A stretch of 40,258 nucleotides of DNA from a virus (Duplodnaviria > Heunggongvirae > Uroviricota > Caudoviricetes): the IMG/VR virus record IMGVR_UViG_2651869695_000011; one strand, given 5' to 3'. A program made the translations under genes and the position numbers. Positions 1,142 to 40,258 of this stretch are shown piece after piece (the first letter of the stretch is position 1; every line of letters starts with the position of its first letter). The notes below the pieces were generated by a model. That model was given only the letters and a program-made list of their open reading frames with translations. It did not search any database and was not told where the DNA came from.

Positions 1142-1288
1142 TCATTCATAGTGCAGGGTCAAATCATTCCCACTCAATTATTTACGGCAGCCATAACCAA
1201 TTGAGTGATAACATTTTTCCAAAAACTAATTTTTTTAGTACCGTTTTATATACCGTCACCGGAAATCAGTACCATGAAAAATGCCATG

Positions 1289-1771
1289 CTATCTTGTCAG
1301 GGTGTCATACTGTTTTTCGCAGACTCTTCCGGCTTCGGCTGCCCGGTCAGCATACTCTGCCAGTTGTCTGTTTCTCTCGAGAGATTTGCTGAGCACGTCG
1401 GCAAGCAAAACTCCGGTATCTGCGGCTGACGCCCCAGCGCCGACAATGGCGTTATACTGCCTGAGCTGTTCACGGATGGCAACGAGCTGTTGCTGCAACC
1501 TGCCAGCGCGAGCGGCAGCATCAAGAGCATCATTGCGCGCCTGGTCGATCCTCTGCTGCGCTTCACGTTCATTGGTCACTTTCTCCTGTTCGTAGTACTG
1601 ACGAACTTTTTCTTCTTCGGCTTTGCGGTCTTCTTCCGCCTGCGCATACCCGGCATCGTACTGACGGCTGCCGTGTATATTCCAGGCAACAACTCCTGAT
1701 GTGGCAAGAACAGCAAGCATCGCCACGATAAGCAACTGTTTCCAGTATGCTTTTACGAATATCAGGATCAT
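1289..1771 (-). CDS. Rz-like i-spanin
   Basis: Last gene of lysis cassette; N-terminal TM segment ([18 protein letters not shown]) then coiled-coil periplasmic domain; start overlaps endolysin stop (ATGA). Confidence 0.6.
1297..1533 (-). CDS. Rz1-like o-spanin lipoprotein, embedded in Rz in another frame
   Basis: Internal ORF with start [12 protein letters not shown]|C (lipobox LAGC), Pro/Ser-rich mature part; fully nested in Rz as in lambda Rz/Rz1. Start chosen at internal ATG 1531-1533. Confidence 0.45.
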   Translation of the reverse strand: MMLLMLPLALAGCSNSSLPSVNSSGSITPLSALGRQPQIPEFCLPTCSANLSRETDNWQSMLTGQPKPEESAKNSMTP

Positions 1772-2397
1772 ACCGCCAGCACCTTACTGGCAGTTATGTA
1801 TCGCGCACGCCGGTCGTCGATGCCGTTCCGGCCACCATTGATAATCAGAGTTACACGTGCAATATCACCGGTATACTTCATGCAGCCTTTGCTGGCAAAA
1901 AACCACGCCGCACTACGAGCCGCATATTCATCCTGCGCCAGCAGTTCAGGACTCTCCAGCAGGTCAACTTTCAGACCGTTTCCACAGTCACGATAGTTAT
2001 TCAAACCGGTAATCTGGATAAGCCCGCGCCCACGGTAATTCCAGCCATCACCAGGGGCATTGTTACCCATGCGTTTGCTGTACACCAAATTTGCGATCGC
2101 TCTCTGGCGCTCAAGTGGCAATGGTGGTTCACCAGCACGGCGCCCCAATGCGTTGGCCTGCCCCTGAGTGAGACGCCCAGCCAGAACGAAGTTAGCCAGT
2201 CCGGTGACGCTGTAGTTGAAGTTCTCCTGCAGCCGGGTGAAGCCTCCAGACTCATGCCCGACCTGAGCAATAAACATTGCCTGATCTTCTGGTTTGCTGA
2301 TACCAAACTCTTTCATCGCAGAAGTTATATGCGAGAACCAGCGTGCGGCCAGCGCCTCGCTAATACCAGCAGCTCGCTGGAATTGTTTAATCTCCAT
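1768..2397 (-). CDS. Endolysin, glycoside hydrolase family 19 (chitinase-like)
   Basis: Motifs [26 protein letters not shown] typical of GH19 phage endolysins; lies between holin-like genes and Rz. Confidence 0.85.
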
Positions 2398-2695
2398 GTT
2401 TAGACCTCGTTATTTTGAAAATCTGAACGACGTTACCGCGAGTTTTAAGAACCGCAGCAAGCATGACAGCATTGATAATGACCTCAGATAAATCCACAGC
2501 CATTGGCGTGCGTAACCAGATTGCATAGACGACACGAACAGGAATACTGGCCGCAGCAACAATAAGGAAATAAGCAAGCCACCCTCCCCACCTTCGATGT
2601 TGTGAACCGTTACGCCGGAATGTGACAACACGAATTGCTATGCCAGTACAAATAAGTGCATTGGTGATAAGCAAAACAAGCTCATTAGTTACCAT
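2387..2695 (-). CDS. Holin/antiholin-like small membrane protein
   Basis: 102 aa, two to three hydrophobic segments, immediately upstream of endolysin with overlapping stop/start. Confidence 0.5.
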
Positions 2696-3086
2696 CGCCT
2701 TTTCTCCCCGGAATTAACTCGCGTGGATTATCGGAACGGTGATAGAGCCAGATGCCAATTCGAACTGCAACGATTGCTGACACGAATGCACCAGCAGAGA
2801 AAACAATCCCTTTCTCGAAAGAGTCCTGCGTGATGGTAGGGATCAGGCTGGCTACGCCGATAAGGATGGATGCAGTTGGTTTGTAGAAGAGAAGGCCGCA
2901 GAGAAAGCTGAGCATCGACAGGAGAACCCGGCGGCGGATCGGGTATTCGACAGCCGAGGTAACAAAGATTACCGCGCCTGCCAAAGACCCCAACGCCACT
3001 TCTGGCGGGACACCAGCGATTACCGCAGCGAGCGAACCCATACTAAGCCACTGATTTAAAGACTCACTTGTTAGCCCGGCTGACAT
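2685..3086 (-). CDS. Holin-like membrane protein
   Basis: About 133 aa with multiple TM segments; first gene of lysis cassette. Start set at ATG 3084-3086 (SD GGTGG); the ORF-track GTG at 3093 is less likely. Confidence 0.5.
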   Translation of the reverse strand: MSAGLTSESLNQWLSMGSLAAVIAGVPPEVALGSLAGAVIFVTSAVEYPIRRRVLLSMLSFLCGLLFYKPTASILIGVASLIPTITQDSFEKGIVFSAGAFVSAIVAVRIGIWLYHRSDNPRELIPGRKGDGN

Positions 3087-3175
3087 AATGACCACCGTTT
3101 ACTGTGCATAAAGAACCTCCTTAGTTGGTTCTCATATCATACACAATAAACCATATGTGTTTTAATTTGGTAACA

Positions 3176-3226: not shown

Positions 3227-5971
3227 TTAACCTTTAGAAAAAACAGACAGTAACGGAAGTGTAAAAGTCGACACACCAGTATTCATCATGCAGGTTTTAC
3301 CACCTGAGTATCCAGATATGGTTTGCGAAACTGGACTTCCTGTTGTTGGGAAAATGGTGATTTCATCCCCCCCCTTCAATACTCTAACTTTGCCTGTAAC
3401 ATCAACCGATGAACTTGAAACAGACGTGAGAGATCCGTTGGTCATTGTATAAAAGTTTATAGTTCCTGTTGCTGTTCTGCTTACACCACATCCTGATTTT
3501 TGCTTCTGTTTATAGTTAAACAATACCAGCAGGCCAACAGGCATTGACTCAAGCTCAACTGCTGTAGACTGGTAGGTCTTACTGCCGTTTCTCATGTCAG
3601 GAGCCTCATCATCTGGATCAGAAAAATTATACCCAAGAGTTAAATCATTAACCGTGGCATTATTCCCTGTTATTCCTTTGACTTGATTAACACTTAACGG
3701 TATGTAATTAAACCCTGCAAAAAGCGGTGTTAACTTTTCTCTAAATAAAAGGCCTGGTGGGTATACTAACGAAGGTGTACCATCATATGTCACTGAGATA
3801 ATATTAAGTCCCTTTTTAAGGGTTCCAATGCACGTTGTTTGTTTGCCTGTAAATGATGTTAGCCCATTGCTGGCAACTTTACCTGATAGATAAGAAGAGT
3901 TCCTGATGTCATTGAGAATGACATTGAACTGGTTAACACGATCTGATGAAGTATAAGTTGGGTTATATGGCTCAAATAATGTTACAGAGATATCGCTTGT
4001 ATCACTCCATACAAAATACCGACAAATAACATTTTCATTTGAAGGCGTAATCCTTCCCCATCCACCAAGTGCATCAAGATAATCACCTCCACTTAATATC
4101 GAAATTGATGGGTAGTATCTGGTATTTGAAGGGTATCCAATACCAATAAATGAAAGTTGAGTAGTAGGGATTAGGTTCTTATTTTTTACAGCTGTATAAA
4201 CGCGCTCTTTTAATACCTCTTTTGCAGCATAAGCACCGATGTATGCATGTCCTATCGTTGATGGATGGCTCTGGTCAAAGACAGTACCGCCGTCACGTTT
4301 GGCAACATCAGATATAGAGTACGCGCCTATATCTGCATAAGCGTCAGTCGTGGCAATGGACAAATCCAAAAACTCGACCTTTGGGAAAAGGCGTTCGATA
4401 CGCTTCTTAATGGCTGACTCCAGGAAAGCCTTTGGCGCATCGTTATTGTTTACAGTAACAAAGCATATCGGACAACCATATCCCCATGATTTTCTAATCA
4501 ACTTTTCAAACTCATGAAAATACGCTTCAAATCCTATTGTTGGAAGTATTCCATTGTCATTAAAACCAAGGCTTATAAAAAGAACATCAGGAGCTTTTTT
4601 TCCATACGCAGCATTCTGGAAAAATCCATAGTCGAAGTTTTCATAACCCCAACCTGTCGCAAGTGACTTGCCAGACGATCCGCAGTTATATGCTTTAAAA
4701 ATATTATCCGTGCTGTCGGATAGCATATTGAGGCAATCAGTAAAAATTCTGAACCATGAATGCTTACCGCCATTTAAATTATGATTGTAGTTGGTAGAGT
4801 TAAGATTTCCATCGCTACCAGTCGGGTTCGGGGTCCATCCTGAACTATAGGCTCCATCCGTTATAGAATCACCAATGATACCTACATGGCAATCTTCTAT
4901 AGTTGATTGGTAACTCTGCTTATTTGCAAATTTAGCAATTGTTCCAAGAGCAGTAAAATCAGGGCCATTGTTAGATAGCCCAACATCAAAAACATGCTCA
5001 TTACCCCATTTGTCTCTTGTGAGAATTTTACCTTCTCCAAGAAATTTAGTCACATCATCTGACGGTAAAAAATTACACCTGATGGTTACATCTTTTGGGA
5101 TGTAAATCTGACCAGGGAAAGCATAAATTGCACTTCTGTTGTCAGTTGTCGTGTTAATAACGACATTTGGAACATAAAATATTGACGTTGCGTCAGTTCT
5201 ATATTGTCCGTTAACAAGCTCAGATCTGAGAACCGCATCCCCAACACCTCTCCAAGCGCCAGGACCAACACCACCAGTAGTGGTAGGAGTTGATCCTGGA
5301 GGAACTACTTTGGGCAGTGGCCCGTCCCATCTGTAGTATTCGCCGTTGCTTTCCCAGAGAAGAACATCGTTAAGATAGATGATGGTATTACCCAACTCAA
5401 AAGATTTCTTCGTGTTATAGCCATACAATCCATTTTCTAAGGTTTCAATAATGGTGCTAAGTATGGTACTAAATTTTGCATAAAGATCATCAGTATATTT
5501 TTTTGTAGCAGCATCTTGGGGAAGAGATGGATCACGAAGATTTCTAATATAATTTGAAAGCGCGTCATAAAAAATTGCTACGTCATTTGGCTTTCTTAAA
5601 GCCAACTTATCATTTCTTAATGATTGTTGAATGAGCATAGTAAGTTTATCAAACGCATCCTCATGTACCTCAGCGAAGAACTTACCCTGATTACGTAAAT
5701 CCGTTTCCTGAGTAGCTGGTAGTTCTCGTGATATAGATATCTGATGACCGTTAGCCAACGCCTTCGAGAGAATTACATTACCGCCGTTATATCCTCCAGC
5801 CCCGGTAACTGTGTAATCAGTATCAAGAGCCAGCACAGCGATATTTTCGTCAAGGTCAACCACCTGTACTACCAGATCAGATTTATTGAAAACCCTAAAG
5901 GTGTACGGAAATGATGTCGTAACGCCGTTACCTGTGTATTCGTTGTGGTCAACTTCGGTTGAGACCGTCAT
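3227..5971 (-). CDS. Tailspike/tail fibre: T7 gp17-like N-terminal adaptor + SGNH (GDSL) esterase domain + C-terminal beta-rich domain
   Basis: N-terminus YTGNGVTTSFPYTF...DLVV...DYTVTG resembles podovirus fibre head-binding domain; SGNH blocks GIIGDSITDG (block I), ISLGFNDN (block III), DQSHPSTIGH (block V); SD GGAG 8 nt upstream; AT-rich body. Confidence 0.8.
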   Translation of the reverse strand: MTVSTEVDHNEYTGNGVTTSFPYTFRVFNKSDLVVQVVDLDENIAVLALDTDYTVTGAGGYNGGNVILSKALANGHQISISRELPATQETDLRNQGKFFAEVHEDAFDKLTMLIQQSLRNDKLALRKPNDVAIFYDALSNYIRNLRDPSLPQDAATKKYTDDLYAKFSTILSTIIETLENGLYGYNTKKSFELGNTIIYLNDVLLWESNGEYYRWDGPLPKVVPPGSTPTTTGGVGPGAWRGVGDAVLRSELVNGQYRTDATSIFYVPNVVINTTTDNRSAIYAFPGQIYIPKDVTIRCNFLPSDDVTKFLGEGKILTRDKWGNEHVFDVGLSNNGPDFTALGTIAKFANKQSYQSTIEDCHVGIIGDSITDGAYSSGWTPNPTGSDGNLNSTNYNHNLNGGKHSWFRIFTDCLNMLSDSTDNIFKAYNCGSSGKSLATGWGYENFDYGFFQNAAYGKKAPDVLFISLGFNDNGILPTIGFEAYFHEFEKLIRKSWGYGCPICFVTVNNNDAPKAFLESAIKKRIERLFPKVEFLDLSIATTDAYADIGAYSISDVAKRDGGTVFDQSHPSTIGHAYIGAYAAKEVLKERVYTAVKNKNLIPTTQLSFIGIGYPSNTRYYPSISILSGGDYLDALGGWGRITPSNENVICRYFVWSDTSDISVTLFEPYNPTYTSSDRVNQFNVILNDIRNSSYLSGKVASNGLTSFTGKQTTCIGTLKKGLNIISVTYDGTPSLVYPPGLLFREKLTPLFAGFNYIPLSVNQVKGITGNNATVNDLTLGYNFSDPDDEAPDMRNGSKTYQSTAVELESMPVGLLVLFNYKQKQKSGCGVSRTATGTINFYTMTNGSLTSVSSSSVDVTGKVRVLKGGDEITIFPTTGSPVSQTISGYSGGKTCMMNTGVSTFTLPLLSVFSKG

Positions 5972-6024: not shown

Positions 6025-6090
6025 ATTACCTAAAAAACCACATATGGATAGATAACCCATAAATACGAACAGATATTACCTTTCAGGTAA
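6025..6090. promoter_or_regulatory. Bipartite upstream element of the tailspike operon: ATTACC-TAAAAAACCACATATG plus palindrome TTACCTTTCAGGTAA
   Basis: Perfect 6+3+6 palindrome at 6076-6090; AACCACATATG at 6036-6046; same arrangement recurs upstream of portal and early-gene operons. Confidence 0.45.
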
Positions 6091-6129
6091 TTCGCAAAAC
6101 GTGCTGGATAGCAAACAAATTATTTGCTA

Positions 6130-6145
6130 CTGTATAAATATACAG
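6130..6145 (+). promoter_or_regulatory. LexA (SOS) box
   Basis: CTGTATAAATATACAG matches CTGT-N8-ACAG with AT-rich core (consensus TACTGTATATATATACAGTA); 8 nt upstream of SD GGAG and ATG at 6167. Confidence 0.7.
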
Positions 6146-6166
6146 TTATTACATGGAGAAGATAAG

Positions 6167-6424
6167 ATGCAGCAGTATCACTATCCACTGGAAGACGGAT
6201 TTACCGAAAGGATTCACACGCCGGGAGGCGTCAGGTCACTGGTGGAGGGATCGCACTTGATGAAATTACTCCGGGATCTCGATAAGGATGGATTTAATGT
6301 CGATGGCCCACTTGCCGAACTGACTGCACTGATTAACTACGTCACCAGCTCACAGATGTCTATGCGGGATCTGCAAACACATCTCGACTATTGTGCCGAA
6401 CAATTACGAAAACAAACCAGATAA
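6167..6424 (+). CDS. Small antirepressor-like protein (stand-alone paralogue of the Bro-N protein C-terminal domain), LexA-controlled
   Basis: 85 aa; SD GGAG at 6154-6157; aligns with last ~70 aa of the 6740-7450 product (shared IH.P.GV..L.E.S.LM.LL..L..DG..V.G..AELT...Y......RD.QTH..Y). Upstream GTG 6101 extension rejected. Confidence 0.5.
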   Translation: MQQYHYPLEDGFTERIHTPGGVRSLVEGSHLMKLLRDLDKDGFNVDGPLAELTALINYVTSSQMSMRDLQTHLDYCAEQLRKQTR

Positions 6425-6560
6425 GATTTGAAATTACCAAGAGGAGTGCTTATATTTACCTTTGCGGTAAATTTACATCGCACTCCTCTTGTGCCATAGT
6501 AATCGGGCACTGGCAAAATCCAGTGCCGGGATTGGCGTCCCGAGTTACTAAGTGGCGCAT

Positions 6561-6583
6561 ACCACGCCAGACGTGGTTTTTTT
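6561..6583 (+). terminator. Rho-independent terminator
   Basis: ACCACG-CCAGA-CGTGGT hairpin followed by TTTTTTT. Confidence 0.55.
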
Positions 6584-6739
6584 ATGCGTTAAGCACAGCC
6601 ATATCCGAATTATGGTGGGCTGGGCAGGGGTCCGAAAGGACGCCGGTACCACTTAGGCCGGTACGCCAACCTTGTCCAGTTCACCACCAGTAATTGGCGT
6701 TGCGGTGGTGATTAAAATCACTAAGTGGAGATAACCACC

Positions 6740-7450
6740 ATGGCTAATGCTCAAACTGCCATCTTCAAATTTGAATCTGTTAACCCTATCCGTTCCATCA
6801 TTATCGATGGCCAACCATGGTTTGTAGCCCAAGACGTTTGTAGTGCGCTGCGTATCCAAAACGTCACCCAAGCACTTGAAAAACTGGATGATGATGAAAG
6901 GTCTATGTTCAACATAGGGCATGAACATCGTGCAATTTTTGACAGCCGAGTAAAAGAGATCAACATCATCTCCGAGTCAGGCCTCTACACACTGATCCTC
7001 CGCTGCCGCGATGCGGTGACACCAGGCACTATCCCCTACCGCTTTCGTAAATGGGTTACAGGTGAGGTTCTTCCTCAGATCCGCCGCACCGGAAGTTACA
7101 TTAAAAACTCGCTCCCGCAGGAAGAACGCATAAAGATGGTTGCCGACCAGGTAGCCAACGCCACAGCATCAGCAGTGATGCAGGCAATGAAGATAGAGAA
7201 CAAAACCTACAGTGCCCCACTGAAGCCCGGCTACCGCAGTCTGATTCATTCTCCGTCTGGTGTTCTCGGCCTGACGGAGAACTCACTGCTGATGAATTTG
7301 CTGAACCAGTTGCAGGAAGACGGGCACGATGTATCGGGCGCGGCGGCGGAGCTGACCACCATGTTTTGCTACATCGTTGGTGTGAGCAAATGCCTGCGTG
7401 ATATCCAGACTCACGCGGAGTACATCAACGACAAGGCTGGGTTCTTCTGA
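6740..7450 (+). CDS. Bro-N domain antirepressor-family protein
   Basis: Classical Bro-N signature (FKFESVNPIRSIIIDGQPWFVAQDVCSAL...LDDDE...ISESGLYTLIL...FRKWVTGEVLPQIRRTG); SD GGAG 9 nt upstream of ATG 6740; C-terminal domain paralogous to 6167-6424. Confidence 0.75.
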   Translation: MANAQTAIFKFESVNPIRSIIIDGQPWFVAQDVCSALRIQNVTQALEKLDDDERSMFNIGHEHRAIFDSRVKEINIISESGLYTLILRCRDAVTPGTIPYRFRKWVTGEVLPQIRRTGSYIKNSLPQEERIKMVADQVANATASAVMQAMKIENKTYSAPLKPGYRSLIHSPSGVLGLTENSLLMNLLNQLQEDGHDVSGAAAELTTMFCYIVGVSKCLRDIQTHAEYINDKAGFF

Positions 7451-7597
7451 CGGGCGGCGGCACAGGGATGTGCCTTTAAATAATTCTGTACAGATTGCAG
7501 ACTGTGGGTGAATAGCGTACTATTACCTCAAGGGTAAACGGATTGGTTTCATTTTTATTAATCCGTGTAATGAACTTATGAGATATGAGGTAATGTC

Positions 7598-7777
7598 ATG
7601 CGAAACGAAAAATTGCAGATGCGTAGAGCGCAAGCTGCCGCAAGACGTTCTTTCAATGGAAGCGTAGAGTACGTAAAAGTTACTATGACAAAAGATCACG
7701 CAAGTCGCGTATCCCGAGCTTTCTTTGATTCTCGTAACAATAAGGAAAATTATGAGTTCGTCTGCGTCGCAGAATGA
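7598..7777 (+). CDS. Small basic protein (59 aa), possible DNA-binding or antitoxin-like partner
   Basis: Not in ORF track (below size cutoff); good SD TGAGGTAA 6 nt upstream of ATG; Arg-rich N-terminus; 3' end overlaps start of next gene in a different frame. Confidence 0.3.
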   Translation: MRNEKLQMRRAQAAARRSFNGSVEYVKVTMTKDHASRVSRAFFDSRNNKENYEFVCVAE

Positions 7778-8297
7778 TAAAAATCAAATTGTCAGATATA
7801 AGGGTCGAGTATTGCATACGCAAAATTTCTCGGCCCTTTGTGCATCTGATCTTGAGCTGAAGAAAGTATCTGATGCCTTTACCCAGTATTGGAAAACGGG
7901 ATACCATCCATCTCTTGGTAAAGATGCTGCATTTGCTCGTCCGACAGAAATGCTTAAACTAAATGTCAGGCATACTCATGTCGATAACCAAGACTATATT
8001 CCAGAAGATAGTGATAAAAAACACACTGGTAAAAAATCATCTTGGGATGCATGGAAAAATATAGCGTCTGTGCAAGTAAAATGCATACCAACAAGTGATT
8101 GCTTTTTAGTTTATTCGGTAAATCACAATCGTGATGCGCTGGTTATGTTTTTTGTTGACGCAGATGCCCACAACATAACTGAGCAAGAAGAGTTTAAAGA
8201 GGAAGCAATCACTATCAGTTATCAATTCTTTGAGAAAACAAAAACAGAACCAATGCCTTTAGAAGAAGATCTTTTTTCTGATAAATGGAAGGAATAA
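7752..8297 (+). CDS. Hypothetical moron protein (181 aa), no family recognised
   Basis: SD AAGGA 7 nt upstream of ATG 7752; AT-rich codon usage unlike neighbouring virion genes; followed by a strong terminator. Confidence 0.5.
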   Translation: MSSSASQNDKNQIVRYKGRVLHTQNFSALCASDLELKKVSDAFTQYWKTGYHPSLGKDAAFARPTEMLKLNVRHTHVDNQDYIPEDSDKKHTGKKSSWDAWKNIASVQVKCIPTSDCFLVYSVNHNRDALVMFFVDADAHNITEQEEFKEEAITISYQFFEKTKTEPMPLEEDLFSDKWKE

Positions 8298-8356: not shown

Positions 8357-8383
8357 TTAAAAACAAGGCCGCGAAAGCGGCCT
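8357..8383 (-). terminator. Rho-independent terminator of the virion operon (minus strand)
   Basis: On minus strand GGCCGC-TTTC-GCGGCC followed by TTGTTTTTAA. Confidence 0.55.
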
Positions 8384-8395
8384 GTGACATGTCAC
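8384..8395. repeat. 12-bp perfect palindrome GTGACATGTCAC (copy 1 of 3)
   Basis: Exact 12-mer between convergent terminators at the moron/virion boundary. Confidence 0.6.
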
Positions 8396-8957: not shown

Positions 8958-8959
8958 TA

Positions 8960-13206: not shown

Positions 13207-13207
13207 G

Positions 13208-25513: not shown

Positions 25514-25556
25514 GAATCACGCCTAAGGACCGTGATGCCAGAAGTTCCAGGGGCTT

Positions 25557-28514: not shown

Positions 28515-28523
28515 AACACCTTC

Positions 28524-28535
28524 GTGACATGTCAC
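28524..28535. repeat. 12-bp perfect palindrome GTGACATGTCAC (copy 3 of 3)
   Basis: Exact 12-mer in short gap between two minus-strand genes; shares upstream ATAACACC and downstream GCCAGCCT with copy 2. Confidence 0.6.
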
Positions 28536-32072: not shown

Positions 32073-32075
32073 GAT

Positions 32076-32152
32076 TTACCTCTGAGGTAATTAAAAACCA
32101 CATAAGACACGAAATCAATAGATTTTAGAATATTTTATTACCCATAAGGTAA
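32076..32152. promoter_or_regulatory. Intergenic regulatory region with two TTACC-N5-GGTAA palindromes and AACCACATAAG
   Basis: TTACCTCTGAGGTAA 32076-32090, AACCACATAAG 32096-32106, TTACCCATAAGGTAA 32138-32152; only sizeable gap in the early minus-strand operon. Confidence 0.45.
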
Positions 32153-32189
32153 TTATCGAGACGTAAAAAAATGCGCTATCGCGCTGGTA

Positions 32190-32990: not shown

Positions 32991-33763
32991 GCTTCAGGGC
33001 TGTTCCAGTGCGGAACGTTGTTATCAGGTAATGTTGATTGCTTCTGTCTGCTAATCTGCAGCCGCCTTGCCAGCTTCTGCTCCCACTGTGCCTGATGGTA
33101 TGCCTTACCCTCAGCCATCCAGTAAATTCTGAATTCTGCAAGTTCCTGTGCCGTTGGCAGACTGTCCAGGTAGATCCCCTGCAATGAGCTTTTCCGAAGA
33201 AAGTCATCTGATGGCTGCCATTGTTCATGCATGACAAATTTGCCTAATTGCCCTGGCCCACCAGGAGGAACAAAGTTATTCATCACGGCGTTGTTTGCGC
33301 CGGGGTCATGAGGCACAGAATCCCCGCTTTTTGTCCTGCTCTCCCTCTCTTGGTTAAATGACTGGTTATATGACTGGTTCTGGATCCCGTTTTTGGGATC
33401 ATTCAACATCCCGTTTTTGGGTATATTCCCGTTTTCGGTAACATTACCGTTTTCGGGTTCATTACCCCCTTCCCGGTTGCCTTTAATGTTCCCGTTTTTG
33501 GTTATATTAAGAGAGAAAACCCGCACTCTTTTCGTCGCTCCCTTTCTCTCACCGGTATCTGAAATAAGCCCCATTTTCATGAGCGATATAAGCCCGGCCT
33601 GCACGGTTTTTTTATTCAGACAAGTGTCTTTAACGAGGCGTTCTATGCTGGGATAGCAGAGGTTATATTCATCGGCTCTGTCAGCCATCGAGAGCAGTAT
33701 GAGCTTTAATGACGAGCTACCTGGATCTGTCTCCCAGGCCCAATCTGTTGCATGTCTGCTCAT
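32972..33763 (-). CDS. Replication initiator, lambda O-like (N-terminal winged-helix, ori iterons in linker, C-terminal DnaT-like region)
   Basis: N-terminal DNA-binding region; Asn/Gly-rich repetitive linker encoded by iterons; C-terminal region recalled as DnaT-like; upstream of P-like gene; SD GGAG. Confidence 0.6.
   Translation of the reverse strand: MSRHATDWAWETDPGSSSLKLILLSMADRADEYNLCYPSIERLVKDTCLNKKTVQAGLISLMKMGLISDTGERKGATKRVRVFSLNITKNGNIKGNREGGNEPENGNVTENGNIPKNGMLNDPKNGIQNQSYNQSFNQERESRTKSGDSVPHDPGANNAVMNNFVPPGGPGQLGKFVMHEQWQPSDDFLRKSSLQGIYLDSLPTAQELAEFRIYWMAEGKAYHQAQWEQKLARRLQISRQKQSTLPDNNVPHWNSPEAWEDFL
33384..33503. repeat. Origin-like iteron array (CCCGTTTT[T/C]GG direct repeats) inside the O-like gene
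   Basis: Copies at 33386, 33410, 33428, 33446 (variant), 33491 spaced 18-24 bp (one gap with a degenerate copy), followed by AT-rich GGTTATATTAAGAGAGAAAA. Confidence 0.6.
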
Positions 33764-33778
33764 GATTAATCTCCGCTA

Positions 33779-33979
33779 TCAGCTTGAATGTTGTGGGGAG
33801 GAATTAATCATGATCTGCTTAATCTCTGCCCTGATGCGACGGTTTGATTCCATGGTGCACTCAACACAGTGTCCGTTGTAAACCCAGCGTTCACTGTCAT
33901 GTCCGTGCTTACATGTTTTTCCGGTGTAGTAGCGTTTAAGTCCGCGCTTTGCGGCATCAATACGTGTAATGATTTCCAT
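33779..33979 (-). CDS. Small zinc-finger protein (regulator candidate)
   Basis: CKHGH...(x)...CVEC metal-binding arrangement; start at ATG 33977-33979 tentative (weak SD); upstream in-frame ATG at 34015 possible. Confidence 0.35.
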   Translation of the reverse strand: MEIITRIDAAKRGLKRYYTGKTCKHGHDSERWVYNGHCVECTMESNRRIRAEIKQIMINSSPQHSS

Positions 33980-34082
33980 GGTAAGCCCTGTTATTAGTAT
34001 TGGGATTACGGTCATTTTGTGCTGACACAAAAAAAAGATCAACCAGATTTGGTTTTTTATTACCTTTGAGGTACGAATAGAT

Positions 34083-34108
34083 ATGAAAAGACCGCCGGGT
34101 GGCGGTCT
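34083..34108 (-). terminator. Terminator after cro-like gene (tR1-like position)
   Basis: On minus strand GACCGCC-ACCC-GGCGGTC followed by TTTTCAT. Confidence 0.5.
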
Positions 34109-34129
34109 ACAGAGGGTTGTAGCTGGATA

Positions 34130-34360
34130 TCATGAGTAGAAGAAGTATGCCAGTTCTGCTTTTGAGCGCAGCCATTGTCTTGTTTTACAGGCTTTAAAAA
34201 GCCCATCCATCAATACCTTACCTGGCATTTTGCGCTTACCTGTTAAGTGAGTCTGGATATAGTGACTCGTCGTTCCGGCTTCCTGTGCGAAGGCTTCACG
34301 CTCATCCGGAGTAAGTGCAAGCCAGTGCTTTTTGAAATCGAAATGTCCGTTATCGCTCAT
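34130..34360 (-). CDS. Cro-like HTH regulator
   Basis: 76 aa with HTH-like segment (EAFAQEAGTTSHYIQTHLTGKR); divergent from repressor across the operator cluster; candidate promoter TTGTTA-N17-TATTAT upstream. Confidence 0.5.
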   Translation of the reverse strand: MSDNGHFDFKKHWLALTPDEREAFAQEAGTTSHYIQTHLTGKRKMPGKVLMDGLFKACKTRQWLRSKAELAYFFYS

Positions 34361-34514: not shown

Positions 34515-35099
34515 ATGAAAAGTATCCAGGACGTCCGCAGGCAAAATCTCAACGACTTGATCGACCGTGAATTCAATGGTGTTCAGACGCGGATGGCAGA
34601 AAAACTTGGAACTCAGGCAAATCTGGTAAACCGCTGGGCTCTTGGCAAGAAGGTTATCGGCGACCAGGTTGCGCGAAAAATTGAAGCTGCCGCCAATAAG
34701 CCCCGTAACTGGCTTGATATCGATCGCTCGCTTTCTCAGGAAGGTTTTCAGCCTGTCGGCCCAAGCGACATTGGTCAGCTGGCGGCCCACAACCTGGAAC
34801 GCTGGATGAGCGAAAGCCGCGACCTTTCAACACAGGGAAAACTTCACCGCGCATCCGGAGTCGCCCAGGTGACAATCAGCCGCCTGTTAAACAATGAGGT
34901 CAGCGTTTCCATTTCCACCCTGGAGAATGTTGCATCTGCATTCGGGCGTCACGGATATGAACTACTGATTCACCCGCACGACCCTGCAACTATCAACTAT
35001 GACCGCTCGCGCTACGCATTGTTACCTGAAACCGAGAAAGCAAAGATCGAAAGTTACATTGAATTTGTCATCAACCAGAACGAAAAAAACAAACAATAA
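34515..35099 (+). CDS. Prophage repressor, two HTH-like segments, no recognisable S24 peptidase/autocleavage domain
   Basis: HTH-like segments at about residues 20-65 and 110-155; no Ala-Gly/Ser-Lys LexA-like C-domain; no SD within 12 nt of ATG (possibly leaderless). Confidence 0.6.
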   Translation: MKSIQDVRRQNLNDLIDREFNGVQTRMAEKLGTQANLVNRWALGKKVIGDQVARKIEAAANKPRNWLDIDRSLSQEGFQPVGPSDIGQLAAHNLERWMSESRDLSTQGKLHRASGVAQVTISRLLNNEVSVSISTLENVASAFGRHGYELLIHPHDPATINYDRSRYALLPETEKAKIESYIEFVINQNEKNKQ

Positions 35100-35156: not shown

Positions 35157-35233
35157 TTACCTGTTGGGTGATTTTTTTAACTCATATCTATTGACATCAA
35201 ACCAGATACGAATAATTATTACCTCAACGGTAG
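35157..35233 (+). promoter_or_regulatory. O_L/P_L-like operator-promoter driving the recombination/xis/methylase operon
   Basis: TTACCTGTTGGGTGA (35157-35171); -35 TTGACA (35191-35196), 17-bp spacer, -10 AATTAT (35214-35219); TTACCTCAACGGTAG (35219-35233) over the start site. Confidence 0.55.
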
Positions 35234-35252
35234 CAGACCGAGGTAACAAGTT

Positions 35253-35405
35253 ATGCAGTGGAAAATCATCAACGGTTGGTACTGCGTTACTGCATGCGGA
35301 TTCATGAGCTGGAAGTTCCGCACCTTACAGGAAGGCATTAAGTGGGCTTTCGTCAGCAAAGAAGCTCGCGATGTGGCCAACGATAACGAGATATGGGAGG
35401 GCTGA
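35253..35405 (+). CDS. Small ORF (50 aa), first gene of the P_L-like operon
   Basis: SD GAGGTAA 6 nt upstream of ATG; stop TGA 2 nt before next ATG (TGATAATG coupling); below ORF-track cutoff. Confidence 0.3.
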   Translation: MQWKIINGWYCVTACGFMSWKFRTLQEGIKWAFVSKEARDVANDNEIWEG

Positions 35406-35407
35406 TA

Positions 35408-35707
35408 ATGAACGTTAATCAGCAGAAAAATCTTCAAAAAATCATGCTGGCATTCGACAAGGACTACCGCCTGTCAGAACAGCTATATGACCGACAAGTT
35501 GAACTGATTGAGAGCATCCGACTTCATCAACTGTCCTCAACTTTCGACGTTGTAACAGGCAAAGGCGTTCGTCAGGAAGTACTGGAGGCTGCTAAAGACA
35601 GCCCTGAGTTCGAAGAACTGATGGATGCCTACCGGCGCGAGGCAATGGCAATTATCGCCCGCTGGGATCTGGCGGATCAGCTTGATGGACAGAGGGACGC
35701 GGCATGA
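35408..35707 (+). CDS. Hypothetical protein preceding exonuclease (possible recombination accessory factor)
   Basis: SD GGGAGGG upstream of ATG 35408; ATGA overlap with exonuclease gene. Confidence 0.4.
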   Translation: MNVNQQKNLQKIMLAFDKDYRLSEQLYDRQVELIESIRLHQLSSTFDVVTGKGVRQEVLEAAKDSPEFEELMDAYRREAMAIIARWDLADQLDGQRDAA

Positions 35708-36525
35708 AAGCGGGAATTTATTTCGACATCAGCAACGAAGACTACCACGCCGGTGACGGCGTGAGTAAATCGCAACTGGACATGGTTGCCAAGAATCCGG
35801 CGCTTCTTAAATGGGTTCAGGCAGCACCAGAAGACGAAGAGAAAAAGTCTGCACTGGATATGGGAACCGCATTGCACTGTCTGCTTCTGGAGCCTGGAGA
35901 GTTCGACAAACGCTTCATTGTTTCACCGAAATTCGAACGTCGGACGAAACAAGGTAAAGCTGACGAAGAGGCATTTCTTCGTGATATGGCGGATATGGGG
36001 ATTACGGTACTTGATGCCGAGCAGTGGCGGAAACTGGAGCTGATGCGTGATAGCGCAATGGCTCACCCGGCGGCACGCTGGATGCTGGAAGCACCTGGTT
36101 ACTGCGAAGCATCAATGTACTGGAACGATGAAGATACTGGTGAGTTGTGCCGCATTCGTCCAGACAAATGGCTGAACGAGCACAACGTGATCGTCGACGT
36201 GAAAAAGGTTGCAGATATGGACCGTTTTGCACGCCACATCGAGGAATTCCGCTACCACGTGCAGGACGCAATGTACCGCGAAGGCGCAATGAGGGTTACT
36301 GGTCAGCCGCATGGTTTTTTCTTTCTTGCCGTGAGCGAAAGCATTGATTGTGGTCGATATCCGGTACGCGTGTTCGAGCTGGATGCGCCGGATGTCGATG
36401 CCGGGCACGCTCTGTTCCGCCGGGATCTGAATACCTATCACGAATGCCGCATCAACGATGAGTGGGGCGGAGTGGAAATTATTAAACGCCCTGACTGGGC
36501 ACGCAAACAGGATATGTACATATGA
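35704..36525 (+). CDS. PD-(D/E)xK-type exonuclease partner of the annealase (RecE/YqaJ-like)
   Basis: Position immediately upstream of the annealase with ATGA overlap; motif IRPDKW...VIVDVKKVAD (D...D.K). Confidence 0.55.
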   Translation: MKAGIYFDISNEDYHAGDGVSKSQLDMVAKNPALLKWVQAAPEDEEKKSALDMGTALHCLLLEPGEFDKRFIVSPKFERRTKQGKADEEAFLRDMADMGITVLDAEQWRKLELMRDSAMAHPAARWMLEAPGYCEASMYWNDEDTGELCRIRPDKWLNEHNVIVDVKKVADMDRFARHIEEFRYHVQDAMYREGAMRVTGQPHGFFFLAVSESIDCGRYPVRVFELDAPDVDAGHALFRRDLNTYHECRINDEWGGVEIIKRPDWARKQDMYI

Positions 36526-37463
36526 GCAACGACATCGCAAACATCAACGCACCAGTAGACACAGCAATCGCTGGAACTGCTGCAACTATTTTCAGCCCAG
36601 ACGGCTTGAACCAACTGATGAAATTCGCCGAGGTAATGGCGCAAAGCCGCGTAACGGTACCGGCGCACCTCGCCGGGAAACCAGCTGATTGCATGGCCGT
36701 GGCAATGCAGGCTGCGCAGTGGGGAATGAACCCGTTTGCCGTTGCTCAGAAAACCCATGTTGTGAACGGCACGCTAGGTTATGAAGCCCAATTAGTAAAC
36801 GCAGTTATCTCAACGATGTCGCCAACAAAAGATCGCATCAACTACGAGTGGTTCGGGCCGTGGGAACGCGTGATCGGTAAGTTTGTTGAGAAAACATCCA
36901 AAAACGGCAATCCATATATCGCACCAGGCTGGACTCTAAAAGACGAAGAAGGCTGCGGTGTTCGCGTATGGGCAACCATGAAGGGCGAGGATCAACCTCG
37001 AGTGCTTGAGTTAATGCTGTCTCAAGCACAGGTAAGAAACTCCACACTTTGGGCCAGTGATCCGAAACAACAACTCGCATACCTTGCGACAAAACGCTGG
37101 TCTCGCTTGCACTGTCCTGACGTAATCATGGGCGTCTACACACCAGACGAATTACAGGAAACGGCACCGCGCGTTGAGCGAGACATTACTCCGCAAATGA
37201 CCACTGCTGCGGGAATGAACAGTCTGATCAACGCTAAACAAGTGAAAAAGCCTGATGAGCAAACGCGTAAAGCGGATAGCCGTGATCCAGAAGAAATGCT
37301 GATGGCCTTTACCAGCGCAGCGATGAATTACAGCACTGTCTCCGAACTGGATAAAGCTTACAAATACATTGCACAAAAACTTTCAGATGATGACGAACTG
37401 CTGGCAAAAGCCACCGACGTTTACAGCGTTCGTCGGGAAGAATTAAACGAAACATCTATGTAA
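36522..37463 (+). CDS. Single-strand annealing protein, RecT/Red-beta family
   Basis: GMNPFAV and VERDITPQ segments parallel lambda Bet (GLNPW, ERDITPV); classic exo-annealase gene pair. Confidence 0.75.
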   Translation: MSNDIANINAPVDTAIAGTAATIFSPDGLNQLMKFAEVMAQSRVTVPAHLAGKPADCMAVAMQAAQWGMNPFAVAQKTHVVNGTLGYEAQLVNAVISTMSPTKDRINYEWFGPWERVIGKFVEKTSKNGNPYIAPGWTLKDEEGCGVRVWATMKGEDQPRVLELMLSQAQVRNSTLWASDPKQQLAYLATKRWSRLHCPDVIMGVYTPDELQETAPRVERDITPQMTTAAGMNSLINAKQVKKPDEQTRKADSRDPEEMLMAFTSAAMNYSTVSELDKAYKYIAQKLSDDDELLAKATDVYSVRREELNETSM

Positions 37464-37512
37464 CCACCACCGCGGCGCCACGCGCGCCGCACTGCAACCA
37501 AGAGAGGTATTT

Positions 37513-37761
37513 ATGAAAGGTGCATTAGGTAAGAAGGAACTCCTGGCGGTGGTGCCACTGTCATGGAGCACTATCGACCGCATGGAGCGCGCAGGGGAAT
37601 TTCCTAAACGCTGGTATATCACTGACAAACGCTGCGCATGGAACCGTGATGAAGTTGAGCGTTGGCTTGATGAACGTCAGGCAGCAAGCCCGGCAGAGTT
37701 CCAGGGTAAAAAGCCTCCTGTTCAGCAACGTGTATATCGTCCTGTGAGCAACGCTGCATGA
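37513..37761 (+). CDS. AlpA-family HTH protein (excisionase/regulator-like)
   Basis: 82 aa with AlpA-like pattern LLAVVPLSWSTIDRMERAGEFPKRWYITDKRCAWNRDEVERWL. Confidence 0.6.
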   Translation: MKGALGKKELLAVVPLSWSTIDRMERAGEFPKRWYITDKRCAWNRDEVERWLDERQAASPAEFQGKKPPVQQRVYRPVSNAA

Positions 37762-37870
37762 GTGTGCTGCTAAGGCACTGGAGCAAATGGTCAGGATGGT
37801 ACTTATTCCTAGCCTCTGTTTCAGCATGGCTTTATCTGCTGGCATTAATTTTCAGAGAGGGTTGGATTAA

Positions 37871-38170
37871 GTGAAAAAGTTAAGCCGACTTGAAAAATAT
37901 CACATGAACAAGGTTTCAATGCGCAGCCCTTCAAAGGTTGTTGCCGTTACTCCTGCGGCGATAGAGATCGAAAAACGCGCGATTGAAAGAGAGAAAAAAG
38001 GGCAGTTCCGCATTGCCGCCCACCTTTGGCTTCAGTGTATGGATGTTGCTTCTGGTGATGTTGAGCGTGCAAGGATCGCGGTTCGCAGGGACCAATGTAT
38101 CACAAAAGGTAACGGCCTTCGCCGTGGCGACTATAGCGGCATAGGATGTTGTGGGGTGGTTTATGACTAA
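37871..38170 (+). CDS. Hypothetical protein
   Basis: GTG start with SD GAGGG upstream; no family recognised. Confidence 0.3.
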   Translation: MKKLSRLEKYHMNKVSMRSPSKVVAVTPAAIEIEKRAIEREKKGQFRIAAHLWLQCMDVASGDVERARIAVRRDQCITKGNGLRRGDYSGIGCCGVVYD

Positions 38171-38813
38171 GAAATACACACTAATCTATGCAGATCCACC
38201 TTGGGTATACCGGGACAAAGCCGCAGATGGTAATCGCGGTGCCGGTTTTAAATATCCGGTTATGAGTGTGCTGGATATCTGCCGCCTTCCTGTGTGGGAT
38301 TTGGCCGATGAAAACTGTCTGTTGGCCATGTGGTGGGTGCCAACACAACCACTCGAAGCACTAAAAGTTGTTGAAGCCTGGGGATTCCGTCTGATGACCA
38401 TGAAGGGCTTCACGTGGATAAAATGTGGTAGTCGACAACCAGATAAACTGGTTATGGGTATGGGTCACATGACTCGCGCCAATAGTGAAGATTGCCTGTT
38501 TGCAGTAAAGGGAAAACTACCTCCGCGCATTAATGCAGGGATCGTTCAGTCATTTACCGCACCGCGGCTTGAGCATTCAAGAAAACCAGATGTCGTTCGT
38601 GAAAAACTTGTGCAATTGTTAGGCGATGTTTCTCGCATTGAACTGTTCGCCCGCCAGACGTCTCATGGTTTCGATGTTTGGGGTAATCAGTGTGAAGACC
38701 CGGCAGTGCAACTACACCCCGGATACGCGTTGGATATTGGCGGATTAACAAATGTATTCAGCAATGCTCCGCTGTCACCAACAGACAACCAGGGGCGGGA
38801 GCGTGCAGCATGA
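38163..38813 (+). CDS. MT-A70 family N6-adenine DNA methyltransferase
   Basis: Catalytic DPPW motif (LIYADPPWVY) near N-terminus; start set at internal ATG 38163 (SD GGGGTGG). Confidence 0.8.
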   Translation: MTKKYTLIYADPPWVYRDKAADGNRGAGFKYPVMSVLDICRLPVWDLADENCLLAMWWVPTQPLEALKVVEAWGFRLMTMKGFTWIKCGSRQPDKLVMGMGHMTRANSEDCLFAVKGKLPPRINAGIVQSFTAPRLEHSRKPDVVREKLVQLLGDVSRIELFARQTSHGFDVWGNQCEDPAVQLHPGYALDIGGLTNVFSNAPLSPTDNQGRERAA

Positions 38814-39004
38814 ACCGGGCATCACCAGCAGATTTAAGGAAATGCCTTGAAACTGCAAACATGCTTGCACACAGCGGGATCAGGTTTGTTCCAATTCCCG
38901 CTGTCACTGATGCTGAATTTGCAACGCTGTCAGCAATATTCGCAGACAAAATTGAATCACTGGCAGCAGAAGCCGAGAGGGAAGAAAATCAGCAGAATAA
39001 TTAA
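38810..39004 (+). CDS. Hypothetical small protein adjacent to integrase
   Basis: 64 aa, ATGA overlap with methyltransferase gene; convergent with int. Confidence 0.35.
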   Translation: MNRASPADLRKCLETANMLAHSGIRFVPIPAVTDAEFATLSAIFADKIESLAAEAEREENQQNN

Positions 39005-39007
39005 ACG

Positions 39008-40258
39008 TTATTCCCCCGCCATCCACTTCTCAAACTTCGACGGGGAGAACGGAATCAGATCCGTATGCTCCCCGTTAATCCAGGAATCAATCATATCGGC
39101 CCACTGCTGCAACATGTAGGCGCGCTGTCTGGCGTATTCCGCTTTGTTATATACGGCGCGTACACCTTTCTGCTCATGTGCCAGAGCCTTTTCAATCCAG
39201 TCTGAAGGATAACCAGCCTCATGCAACAACGTACTGGCTGTACGGCGCATATCATGTACAGTGAAGTCCTGAATATGCTCACCATCTTCATTTATTATTT
39301 TCACCGTTCTGTCGATCAGAGAGTTCAGAGCGGCATTAGATAATGGCTTCCGGAAGTTGTAACGACCAGGAACCAGATATTCACTTCCACCAGCGCACAT
39401 CTGTAACCCGACCAATATATCCTGTGCCTGTTTAGGCAGGTAAATAACGTGCGCCCGGCTTCCCTTCATGCGGTCTGAAGGAATTGTCCATGTCCATTTT
39501 TTAAAATCTATTTCATCCCACGTTGCATTGGTGAACTCGCCTTTACGAACCATAGTGATAAGCACCAGCTTTAAAGCCATTTTCATAGTGCCCATAGCAC
39601 CAATGGCATCCAGCGTACGGAAGAACAGGCCAATTTCTTCTGGTGTCAGTGTTCGCTCTCGTGGTTTAAATATGGCGATAGACGAAGGTTTAATGTCAGC
39701 CGCAGGATTAAACAAACCATGACCACGGTCATTGGCGTGACGGTATACGCTGCTGATAATCTCCCTGGCCTGTACTGCTGTTGCCCGGCCACCGCGTTCG
39801 ACAATCCGGTCACACAAATCACGAACCATCGATGTGGTAATTTCAGTCATCATTTTGTTGCCAAGAACCGGAAGTATGTCACGGTCGATCACCGCCTGCT
39901 TCATTGCGCGGGTACTTTCAGCCAGGATGACGTGTTTCATATAACTGTCGGTATGTACCGCAAACGTCTCGGCACCACGAATCTTTTTGATACCGTCACG
40001 TTTAGCCGCAGCCGGCGACTGGCCTGCTTTAAGCAGCTTCTTTGCAGCAATCAGTTCTTCTCGCGCTTCTGCCAAGCTGATACCGTCACGCCCATACTGC
40101 CCGATTACCAGTGTTTCGCGGCGACCGTTGATACGGTAGTCATAGCGAAACGAGACCGTACCTGACGTAAGCACAGCTACATACAGCCCGTCACGATCGG
40201 AAACTTTGTACAGTTTGTCCTGTGGCTTGAGGTTTTTTAATTTTGTATCGGTAAGCAC
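39008..40258 (-). CDS. int: Tyrosine integrase (P4-type); 5' end at window edge
   Basis: N-terminus LTDTKLKNLKPQDKLYKVSDRDGLYVAVLTSG (arm-binding domain typical of P4-like integrases); C-terminal HDMRRT (HxxR) and catalytic Tyr region; first codon in window is GTG, true start may lie 1-2 codons beyond the window. Confidence 0.85.
   Translation of the reverse strand: MLTDTKLKNLKPQDKLYKVSDRDGLYVAVLTSGTVSFRYDYRINGRRETLVIGQYGRDGISLAEAREELIAAKKLLKAGQSPAAAKRDGIKKIRGAETFAVHTDSYMKHVILAESTRAMKQAVIDRDILPVLGNKMMTEITTSMVRDLCDRIVERGGRATAVQAREIISSVYRHANDRGHGLFNPAADIKPSSIAIFKPRERTLTPEEIGLFFRTLDAIGAMGTMKMALKLVLITMVRKGEFTNATWDEIDFKKWTWTIPSDRMKGSRAHVIYLPKQAQDILVGLQMCAGGSEYLVPGRYNFRKPLSNAALNSLIDRTVKIINEDGEHIQDFTVHDMRRTASTLLHEAGYPSDWIEKALAHEQKGVRAVYNKAEYARQRAYMLQQWADMIDSWINGEHTDLIPFSPSKFEKWMAGE

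Follow-up and report, generated by a model that had tools for sequence, protein, structure and literature searches.

Temperate podoviruses of the phiV10/epsilon15 kind have been sequenced, imaged and partly dissected since 2006–2016, and near-identical prophages are present in many E. coli genomes. One such phage, ZX5, is a podovirus by electron microscopy (EM) and is mitomycin C-inducible, and its 17-bp attP/attB core, ATTGAGTGGGAATGATT, is located at the 3′ end of guaA (PMC9782041). Here, we analyzed a 40,258-nucleotide stretch of viral DNA (IMG/VR record IMGVR_UViG_2651869695_000011; hereafter, the window), to which ZX5 is 97% identical over the shared parts. Positions 1162–40258 are almost certainly an integrated, apparently intact temperate podovirus of the phiV10/epsilon15 type (Uetakevirus or a sister species), inserted at the 3′ end of guaA beside yfgI. 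Phages of this kind are familiar, and the element is of little general consequence; it is set apart by a swapped set of DNA-ejection proteins, a new tailspike, and an undescribed, conserved 12-bp palindrome.

DNA searches against 50,697 phage records showed that phiV10, ZX5, PAS61, phiv142-3, HEMP4, TL-2011b and O157 typing phages 9/10 match about two-thirds of the element at 96–98% identity, and that epsilon15 has ~77% nucleotide identity across the shared head and terminase genes. Translations of the 55 proteins annotated in phiV10 were used as tblastn queries against the window. Full-length matches in the same order were obtained for 45 of these 55 (71–100% identity, all but four at least 93%). 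This whole-genome comparison proved right the guess of an epsilon15-like temperate podovirus made in a preliminary description of the DNA, as the phiV10 proteins are colinear and mostly 93–100% identical. The layout consists of one long minus-strand late block, a plus-strand accessory block, divergent early operons, and an integrase at the right end. The hallmarks of the group, namely the gp7 capsid, the gp10 staple and the Head-tail_con portal, were all found on this colinear genome. For the first 25 kb of the window, which hold the host flank, lysis genes, ejection-protein cassette and head-tail genes, at least 45 complete E. coli genomes gave coverage of 80% or more at ~98% identity. Separately, 64 Synechococcus phage records were among the megablast matches to the structural region, none of them top-ranked.

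The window is like phiV10 (NC_007804), ZX5, PAS61, phiv142-3 and HEMP4 in gene order, integrase, Rep/Ant, operators and tRNA-Arg; the head and tail genes of these phages are identical or near-identical to its own, and the guaA att core, reported for ZX5, is shared. In contrast to phiV10, the window has other sequences in place of p18 (from about codon 139), p19 and p20, lacks p21 and the O-acetyltransferase gene, differs in the receptor-binding part of the tailspike and in the nin-like accessory genes, encodes RecE and RecT in separate genes, and carries a 200-bp insert with a 70-amino-acid (aa) open reading frame (ORF) before terS. These differences (cassette, tailspike, missing O-acetyltransferase gene and accessory genes) are ordinary mosaicism. 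Epsilon15 (AY150271) has the same architecture, with annotated repressor operators dispersed in the same way (ahead of the terS and tailspike genes and of the portal and early operons), but carries serotype-conversion genes that the window does not have. TL-2011b (NC_019445) shares with the window an ant-isrK-C4-bro-yafO block and the yfgI-side flank; however, it carries yet another, third version of the ejection proteins (905 and 1004 aa) and an extra Arc/Ant module.

The left boundary was located precisely. Positions 1–1071 (plus strand) are a host flank outside the prophage, with yfgH and yfgI identified from the PGAP annotation of the corresponding stretch of E. coli chromosome, and a query containing this flank was matched by 5422 of 5426 E. 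coli genomes. The sequence ATTGAGTGGGAATGATT at 1162–1178 (minus strand), the 3′ end of guaA, is an exact match to the ZX5 attP/attB core (PMC9782041) and marks the prophage boundary. Homology to phiV10 begins at 1162, the same point as this core, and thus the integration site of the phiV10/epsilon15 group, an exact 17-bp core next to yfgI, is found here. The prophage had previously been drawn from position 1142; its presence held, and its true edge is the att core at 1162, 20 bp further to the right. At the other end, the last position of the window is the start codon of the integrase, and therefore the second att site falls outside the window.

The immunity region was then compared with the switch of phage SPC32H (PDB 5D50/5D4Z), which consists of a Rep repressor without an autocleavage domain and an antirepressor, Ant, whose gene is preceded by a LexA box. 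In that system, Ant is reportedly controlled by LexA and takes Rep off the DNA without repressor cleavage. The rep gene of the window (34515–35099, plus strand) encodes a repressor of the SPC32H Rep family (PDB 5d50_A, 4e-42) that is 100% identical to phiV10 p40. Pfam searches of this protein gave HTH_3 only, a helix-turn-helix (HTH) domain, and no S24 autocleavage domain as in a lambdoid CI. The ant gene (6167–6424, plus strand) encodes an 85-aa antirepressor of the SPC32H type (PDB 5d50_E, 'Anti-repressor protein', 1.4e-46), 98.8% identical to phiV10 p24. The control region between the tailspike gene and ant (6076–6145) holds a Rep operator at 6076–6090 and the LexA box CTGTATAAATATACAG at 6130–6145, which fits the consensus (with its flanks TACTGTATAAATATACAGT, 6129–6147) and stands 22 bp upstream of ant. 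Homologues of both Rep and Ant and a LexA box before ant thus point to a switch of the SPC32H type. The lambdoid immunity proposed earlier is therefore correct for the layout, with divergent rep and cro flanked by operators, but not for the components, which are of the SPC32H Rep/Ant type without an S24 domain.

Unlike SPC32H, the phage in the window also has a C4-RNA/Bro-N module beside ant. It comprises an isrK-like Hfq-binding small RNA (6507–6583, plus strand; Rfam RF01394, 67.2 bits, above the gathering score), a C4 antisense RNA (6608–6691, plus strand; Rfam RF01695, 66 bits against a gathering score of 45) and, 34 nt downstream of the C4 RNA, a gene for a Bro-N protein (6725–7450, plus strand; Pfam Bro-N). 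This arrangement resembles the control of ant in the immI region of phage P1 and would correspond to a P1 immI-type layout. The Bro-N homologue of ZX5 acted as an anti-repressor (PMC9782041).

The operator motif TTACC-N5-GGTAA (in full ATTACC-N5-GGTAAT, 17 bp) gave 15 matches with at most one mismatch, where 0.67 were expected. Two of these, both with one mismatch, lie inside genes (3879 and 8581) and are probably due to chance. The other 13 sites are all intergenic; for 12 of them the distance to the first gene downstream is 10–112 bp, and for the bro site it is 262 bp. Besides the site serving the tailspike/ant pair, they are placed on the early-right side at 34397, 34445, 34060 (before p42), 32138 and 32076 (before the DUF1064 gene), on the early-left side at 35157–35171 and 35219–35233, before terS at 28227–28241 and 28245–28259, before the head-tail operon at 25100–25114, before bro at 6456–6470 (with a promoter-like site in 6428–6470), and before a 59-aa ORF and yafO at 7523–7537. 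The rep gene is flanked by two operator pairs, and at the early promoters the operators overlap promoter-like hexamers. Furthermore, the motif coincides exactly with seven 'protein_bind: repressor' features in the GenBank record of epsilon15, in which the site homologous to that before the head-tail operon (2931–2947) is annotated 'repressor'. Because these annotated sites match the motif positions, the elements in the window are known repressor operators and not late-activator sites. The preliminary description had read the repeated upstream elements as a sign of phage factors for late transcription; they indicate negative control instead. In ZX5, endolysin and holin transcripts fell by more than 99.9% when the repressor was overexpressed (PMC9782041).

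These observations suggest a scheme for transcription and induction. As there is no phage RNA polymerase, the host RNA polymerase would have to transcribe everything. At least seven predicted transcription units carry the 17-bp operator, namely early-left, early-right, DUF1064 with downstream genes, terminase, head-tail, tailspike-lysis, and ant/bro/yafO; because they carry the same operator, it is likely that one repressor acts directly on all of them and keeps the entire genome silent in the lysogen. On induction, LexA would be cleaved in the SOS response, which would open the ant promoter, and the 85-aa Ant would then strip Rep from the DNA, both steps being modelled on the homologues. Such stripping of Rep by Ant is said to have been shown structurally for SPC32H. 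As a second layer, the P1-like C4 antisense RNA and the isrK-like leader before Bro-N probably modulate the switch. No match to the Q or N antiterminator families was obtained among the proteins scanned, which did not include every small ORF.

Several points weigh against the identification as an intact member of the phiV10/epsilon15 group and against this account of its expression. Only one att site is present in the window, and completeness at the integrase end is thus only presumed. The genus boundary usually applied by the International Committee on Taxonomy of Viruses is ~70% or more nucleotide similarity over the whole genome; one-way BLASTN identity multiplied by coverage, which is not a full VIRIDIC calculation, was 0.65 for phiV10, 0.63 for TL-2011b and 0.35 for epsilon15. 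The value for phiV10 is near or below that line, and formal genus membership is borderline; the element would thus rank as a new species on the margin of the genus. The operator-bearing promoters of the terminase and head-tail units fit the sigma-70 consensus poorly, such that a positive factor may also be needed, and the timing of late expression is not accounted for. Inducibility and morphology of this prophage are judged from relatives and from its genes alone: a short-tailed virion would be expected from the EM of ZX5 (PMC9782041) and from the adaptor and nozzle homologues.

The first of these points leaves room for the idea that a phiV10-like prophage has decayed into a cryptic or defective remnant that no longer makes particles, because the second att site and anything past the integrase start lie beyond the window. 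The ejection-protein cassette is also foreign and could in principle clash with the rest of the virion. However, no truncated or frameshifted gene was seen, and the shared phiV10 proteins align over their full length. The cassette stands together with the same head and tail genes in the complete E. coli genomes mentioned above (at least 45, at ~98% identity), and it recurs in prophages of other genera, arguing that the combination works. A remnant is therefore very unlikely, and we treat the element as an apparently intact prophage.

The weak late promoters also raise the question of a dedicated positive factor, for which p55 is a candidate. This 112-aa protein (28532–28870, minus strand) belongs to the epsilon15 gp49/N15 gp46 family and matches phrog_536, 'transcriptional regulator'. 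Its gene is the last conserved one of the early-right operon, directly upstream of terS. The alignment showed a basic N-terminus and four invariant C-terminal Cys residues (C79, C82, C91 and C93). No Pfam or NCBIfam match was obtained for p55, and NCBIfam gave nothing for ten unassigned proteins. An AlphaFold model built from 28 close homologues was poor, with a predicted local distance difference test score (pLDDT) of 56, and could not be used to classify the protein.

A perfect palindrome, GTGACATGTCAC, occurs three times in the window, compared with 0.01 expected for GTGAC-N2-GTCAC. The first copy (8384–8395) lies between the stop of a 186-aa gene and the terminator of the late operon (8366–8383). 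The second (26073–26084) lies between the stop of a 118-aa plus-strand ORF (25712–26068) and a terminator at 26089–26108, just downstream of terL. The third (28524–28535) overlaps the stop codon of p55, immediately before the ribosome-binding site of the 70-aa ORF (28302–28514). In every case, then, a stop codon precedes the palindrome and an intrinsic terminator follows downstream; two copies are at most 4 nt from theirs, and the one at the p55 stop is parted from its terminator by the inserted 70-aa ORF. All three copies coincide with mosaic breakpoints. The arrangement was conserved, 12/12, in epsilon15, phiV10, TL-2011b and prophages of three other genera, with different neighbouring genes, and the boxes of epsilon15 stand at the same three places as those of the window. 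The copy at the p55 stop was found in 76 of 80 IMG/VR relatives, and also in the myovirus ZF40, the lambda-like Chlobot, and lambdoid prophages of Edwardsiella and Salmonella. In N15, whose gp46 is 35% identical to p55, a variant with a TG centre, GTGACTGGTCAC, is placed at the stop, and there are three copies; the same variant occurs just past the aligned part of the p55 homologue in the unannotated record of Klebsiella phage 020009. In several unrelated lineages, among them podo-, myo- and siphoviruses, a copy overlaps the stop codon of the p55 family gene. The palindrome is not annotated in the reference records, and no description of it was found in the literature. Two other identities were considered and rejected: the N15 copies are not SopB centromere sites, which read GTGCGACCnnGGTCGCAC (PMC7205306). 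Nor does the spacing TGTGA-N4-TCACA correspond to a CRP site, which has N6.

The simplest reading of this co-occurrence would be that p55 and the palindrome are a protein and its site. It is possible, and we propose it only tentatively, that p55 and GTGAC-N2-GTCAC form an undescribed pair that, in the phiV10/epsilon15 phages with neither a polymerase nor Q, could control read-through or termination, and so late timing, or else that the boxes are hot spots of module exchange. A stronger claim is that a dedicated phage factor, p55, acts at GTGACATGTCAC to switch on the late genes, the loss of Rep alone being insufficient. The position of p55 before terS would suit this role, as would the boxes next to terminators where the early-right operon, the terminase region and the structural operon end. 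Gene and box are found jointly in at least six phage lineages, and in N15 the box centre changes along with the protein. Nevertheless, lambdoid prophages with their own Q antiterminator and N15, with its own late activator gp40, also carry p55 and the box; a late switch role is therefore not required of the pair, and a general late activator is weakened as an explanation. In addition, two ZF40 boxes lie inside annotated genes rather than at terminators, the terminator beside the terL copy serves the opposite strand, and the structure model is too poor to classify p55. We thus consider the late-switch role rather unlikely. The palindrome tied to p55 is in any case a cheap lead on how operon ends are handled in polymerase-less podoviruses and several lambdoid phages. 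The 70-aa ORF between p55 and terS accompanies the 200-bp insert (28323–28521), which is absent from phiV10, ZX5 and PAS61 and represented in TL-2011b by an 8-codon remnant; homologues of the ORF were found in 27 of the 80 IMG/VR relatives.

The virion genes had been described as a T7-like module without RNA polymerase. The gene order is real: the minus strand encodes, in turn, terS, terL, the portal, a scaffold-like protein, the capsid, adaptor, nozzle, internal proteins, tailspike and lysis proteins, with the tailspike parted from the internal proteins by the 2.4-kb plus-strand accessory and immunity block (6167–8297). The absence of a phage RNA polymerase was also confirmed in the window, since structural, terminase or integrase families account for every ORF of at least 400 aa (914, 873, 849, 821, 565, 559, 491 and 416 aa); among the unassigned ORFs the longest, at 274 aa, is a shadow frame. 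Thus, the single-subunit RNA polymerase of the Autographiviridae was not found, and a portal, adaptor and nozzle of the T7 type were. The T7-like label itself applies to the portal, the adaptor, the nozzle and a gp14-family protein, but not to the terminase, nor to the capsid, staple and cement, which are an epsilon15/BPP-1 set.

The portal (23109–24788, minus strand, as are all genes in this paragraph) belongs to Pfam Head-tail_con (PF12236, the T7 gp8 family, 5e-187) and matches PDB 8ck0_A (2e-178). The adaptor of the T7 gp11 type (201 aa, 19303–19908) matches PDB 8ck1_E (7e-26), and the tail nozzle of the T7 gp12 type (821 aa, 16838–19303) matches PDB 8ck1_A, 'Tail nozzle' (7e-217). The nearest solved relative of the portal-adaptor-nozzle set is the marine podovirus Carin-1 (8CK0/8CK1), followed by the Legionella phage LME-1 (9EFK), whose complex has been described as strongly T7-like, with that of Carin-1 as its closest counterpart (PMC12407071); the link of the nozzle to T7 rests on that report. 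Carin-1 and LME-1 have different hosts and unrelated regulatory modules, so that their virion genes alone are comparable. Sequence and profile searches of PDB sequences with the adaptor reached Carin-1 and LME-1 but not T7, which was reached by fold comparison alone: an AF2 model of the adaptor (pLDDT 87.7) was matched by Foldseek to T7 gp11 (7box_M, E 1.7e-6, template modelling score 0.58) and also to KP32 tail tubular protein A, suggesting the gp11 fold. The head genes comprise the capsid gp7 (21117–22103; Pfam GP7, PF20911, 2.7e-149), the Bbp16 cement (20628–21065; Pfam Bbp16), the gp10 staple (19908–20231; Pfam Gp10-like, 4.6e-51), a Bbp19-like protein (22816–23112; Pfam Phage_Bbp19) and a 111-aa protein (within 19908–24788); a 68-aa gene (24803–25009) is the first of the head-tail operon, before the portal. 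By homology, the virion is thus predicted to join an epsilon15-type capsid (gp7, gp10 staple, Bbp16-like cement) to a T7-type portal-adaptor-nozzle tail bearing tailspikes and internal ejection proteins, one of the latter having a lytic transglycosylase domain. In the phiV10 and epsilon15 records a 231-aa protein (22118–22813) bears the label 'protease'; it contains no peptidase domain, and its N-terminal half is acidic and Pro/Ala-rich. Together with its position between portal and capsid, this makes a scaffolding protein, as named in the preliminary description, plausible.

The terminase is of a non-T7 type: terS belongs to Pfam Terminase_2, PHROG 2 was matched for the terS-terL pair (terL, 26159–27634, minus strand), and the epsilon15 record describes the terminase as Sf6-like. 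For terS (minus strand), a short form (27631–28224) and a 224-aa form reaching 28305 are possible. The start at 28224 is probably the more plausible, because the 224-aa form annotated in phiV10 would hold a terminator (28279–28296) and two Rep operators in its first 27 codons; epsilon15 and TL-2011b annotate the short form.

Compared with T7, therefore, the window shares the portal Pfam family, the adaptor fold, an adaptor-nozzle tail, a gp14-family protein and the gene order, but has neither an RNA polymerase nor T7-type replication genes, is temperate, has tailspikes in place of fibres, and differs in capsid accessory proteins and terminase. The T7 gp8-family portal, the gp11-fold adaptor, the gp14-family protein and the portal-to-fibre-to-holin order could be taken for a recent hybrid, in which the virion module of a lytic member of the Autographiviridae, minus its RNA polymerase, was grafted onto a lambdoid prophage. 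Yet similarity to T7 itself was detectable only by profile or fold, the nearest solved relatives are Carin-1 and LME-1 rather than T7, and capsid, staple and cement group with those of epsilon15/BPP-1, the terminase being of another type. Moreover, the whole polymerase-less arrangement is common to epsilon15, phiV10 and many prophages, which indicates an old lineage and makes a recent graft extremely improbable.

Within this old virion lineage, the ejection proteins are one part that was exchanged. Homology to phiV10 stops at 8398 and resumes at ~15411–15414, so that a 7-kb cassette (8399–15413) is swapped, comprising the genes for the 186-aa protein, an 849-aa protein (8960–11509) and a 565-aa protein (11509–13206), and most of the gene for an 873-aa protein with an SLT lytic transglycosylase domain (13208–15829; Pfam SLT), all on the minus strand. 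The three large proteins are covered by PHROGs 684, 3003 and 1044. Of the phiV10 proteins, p19 had no match in the window, p20 was 24% identical, and p18 was matched over its N-terminus only, with the junction inside the SLT protein gene at about codon 139. The GC content is 55–60% across the large genes and ~50% elsewhere. The closest relatives of the cassette in isolated phages are distant (Stenotrophomonas phage BUCT708, 39–49% aa identity; Pseudomonas phage Ab31, 31–45%); for the 565-aa and 849-aa proteins these two phages hold the nearest isolated-phage kin, at 31–49%. Much closer copies were found in prophages of other Enterobacterales, namely Pseudescherichia and Leclercia (81%) and Klebsiella (72%). 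The presence of the same cassette with the same genes in at least 45 E. coli genomes indicates that related prophages routinely exchange such modules. It is as one unit that the three large ejection proteins move between phages, and the junction at about codon 139 of the first gene tells which part must match the conserved tail. PDB searches gave no solved relatives for the 849-aa and 565-aa proteins. The 565-aa protein weakly matches the gp16-type phrog_342 (1e-8); T7 and the window both have a lytic transglycosylase among their ejection proteins, but in the window this domain is not in the protein with the weak gp16-type resemblance. Two small internal virion proteins of 181 and 154 aa precede the cassette (15829–16838, minus strand; PHROGs 418 and 308, 'internal virion protein'), the former matching Pfam PF24072, T7_gp14 (1.8e-7, above the curated cut-off). 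The 186-aa protein at the end of the structural operon (8397–8957, minus strand, 38% GC) matches phrog_11983, whose function is not annotated. It has a clear signal peptide and belongs to no family of known function; it is possibly a secreted or periplasmic accessory protein, for example with an exclusion function.

The replication genes lie in the early-right operon (31728–34360, minus strand), which consists of a cro-like gene (34130–34360), p42, an initiator, a helicase loader and the DUF1064 gene. The O/P replication named earlier was only partly retained: the loader (32190–32975) is a lambda P-family protein (Pfam Phage_lambda_P, PF06992, 2e-56), but the 263-aa O-like initiator (32972–33763) carries Pfam HTH_36 and DnaT domains and gave no Pfam match to Phage_rep_O, even though four to six iterons (33384–33509; repeat families D2 and D3) are inside its gene. 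Replication would thus use an initiator with iterons in its own gene together with the lambda P-family loader. The early-left operon (35157–39004, plus strand; Pfam) encodes p39, p38, a RecE-like nuclease, RecT, AlpA-like and PerC-like proteins, an MT-A70 methyltransferase and DUF1382. The RecET-like recombination was upheld, with RecE-like (35704–36525; Pfam DUF3799, PF12684, 4.8e-22) and RecT (36522–37463; PF03837, 2.8e-44) genes adjacent and overlapping. These genes are separate in the window and in TL-2011b; phiV10 annotates a 586-aa fusion, which may be a frameshift in its record. Similarly, the integrase (39008–40258, minus strand) has the P4-type architecture expected of it (Pfam Arm-DNA-bind_3, PF13356, 3.9e-20; Phage_int_M, PF22022; Phage_integrase, PF00589, 1.3e-19) and is 99.3% identical to phiV10 Int, annotated cd00801 INT_P4. 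Integration would be carried out by this tyrosine integrase, and the AlpA-like protein (37513–37761, plus strand; Pfam Phage_AlpA) is the likely excision factor.

The tailspike (914 aa, 3227–5971, minus strand) contains Pfam Tail_spike_N, Gp63_3rd_G7C, Lipase_GDSL_2 and G7C_GBD domains. Its N-terminal 233 aa are of the phiV10/epsilon15 type (63% identical), and its distal part consists of a G7C gp63.1-like SGNH esterase and a galactose-binding-like domain; the best phage relatives are 51% identical at the aa level. Neither the phage collection nor 5426 complete E. coli genomes yielded a near DNA match to the receptor-binding part. The O-acetyltransferase gene that adjoins the tailspike in phiV10 is the one absent from the window. 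The SGNH esterase is a probable O-antigen deacetylase, and the tailspike is a new allele of the O-antigen esterase type, with a host range that probably covers another O serogroup.

The lysis cassette (1289–3095, minus strand) is 82–98% identical to phiV10 p27–p30a and encodes two holins (2685–3095 and 2387–2695; Pfam Phage_holin_8 and Phage_holin_3_7), a GH19 endolysin (1768–2397; Pfam Glyco_hydro_19) and Rz/Rz1 spanins (1289–1771 and 1297–1572). A tRNA-Arg(TCT) was found antisense to the late genes (25437–25513, plus strand; ARAGORN; Rfam tRNA, 69.4 bits). It overlaps an 83-aa ORF (phiV10 hypothetical p04; region 25437–25694), and one of the two annotations may be spurious. Finally, the 59-aa ORF and a gene for a YafO-like toxin occupy 7598–8297 (plus strand; Pfam YafO_toxin and PGAP label), the 59-aa ORF being a possible antitoxin. 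Because the Rep operator at 7523–7537 precedes them, this toxin-antitoxin-like pair would be under the control of the prophage repressor.

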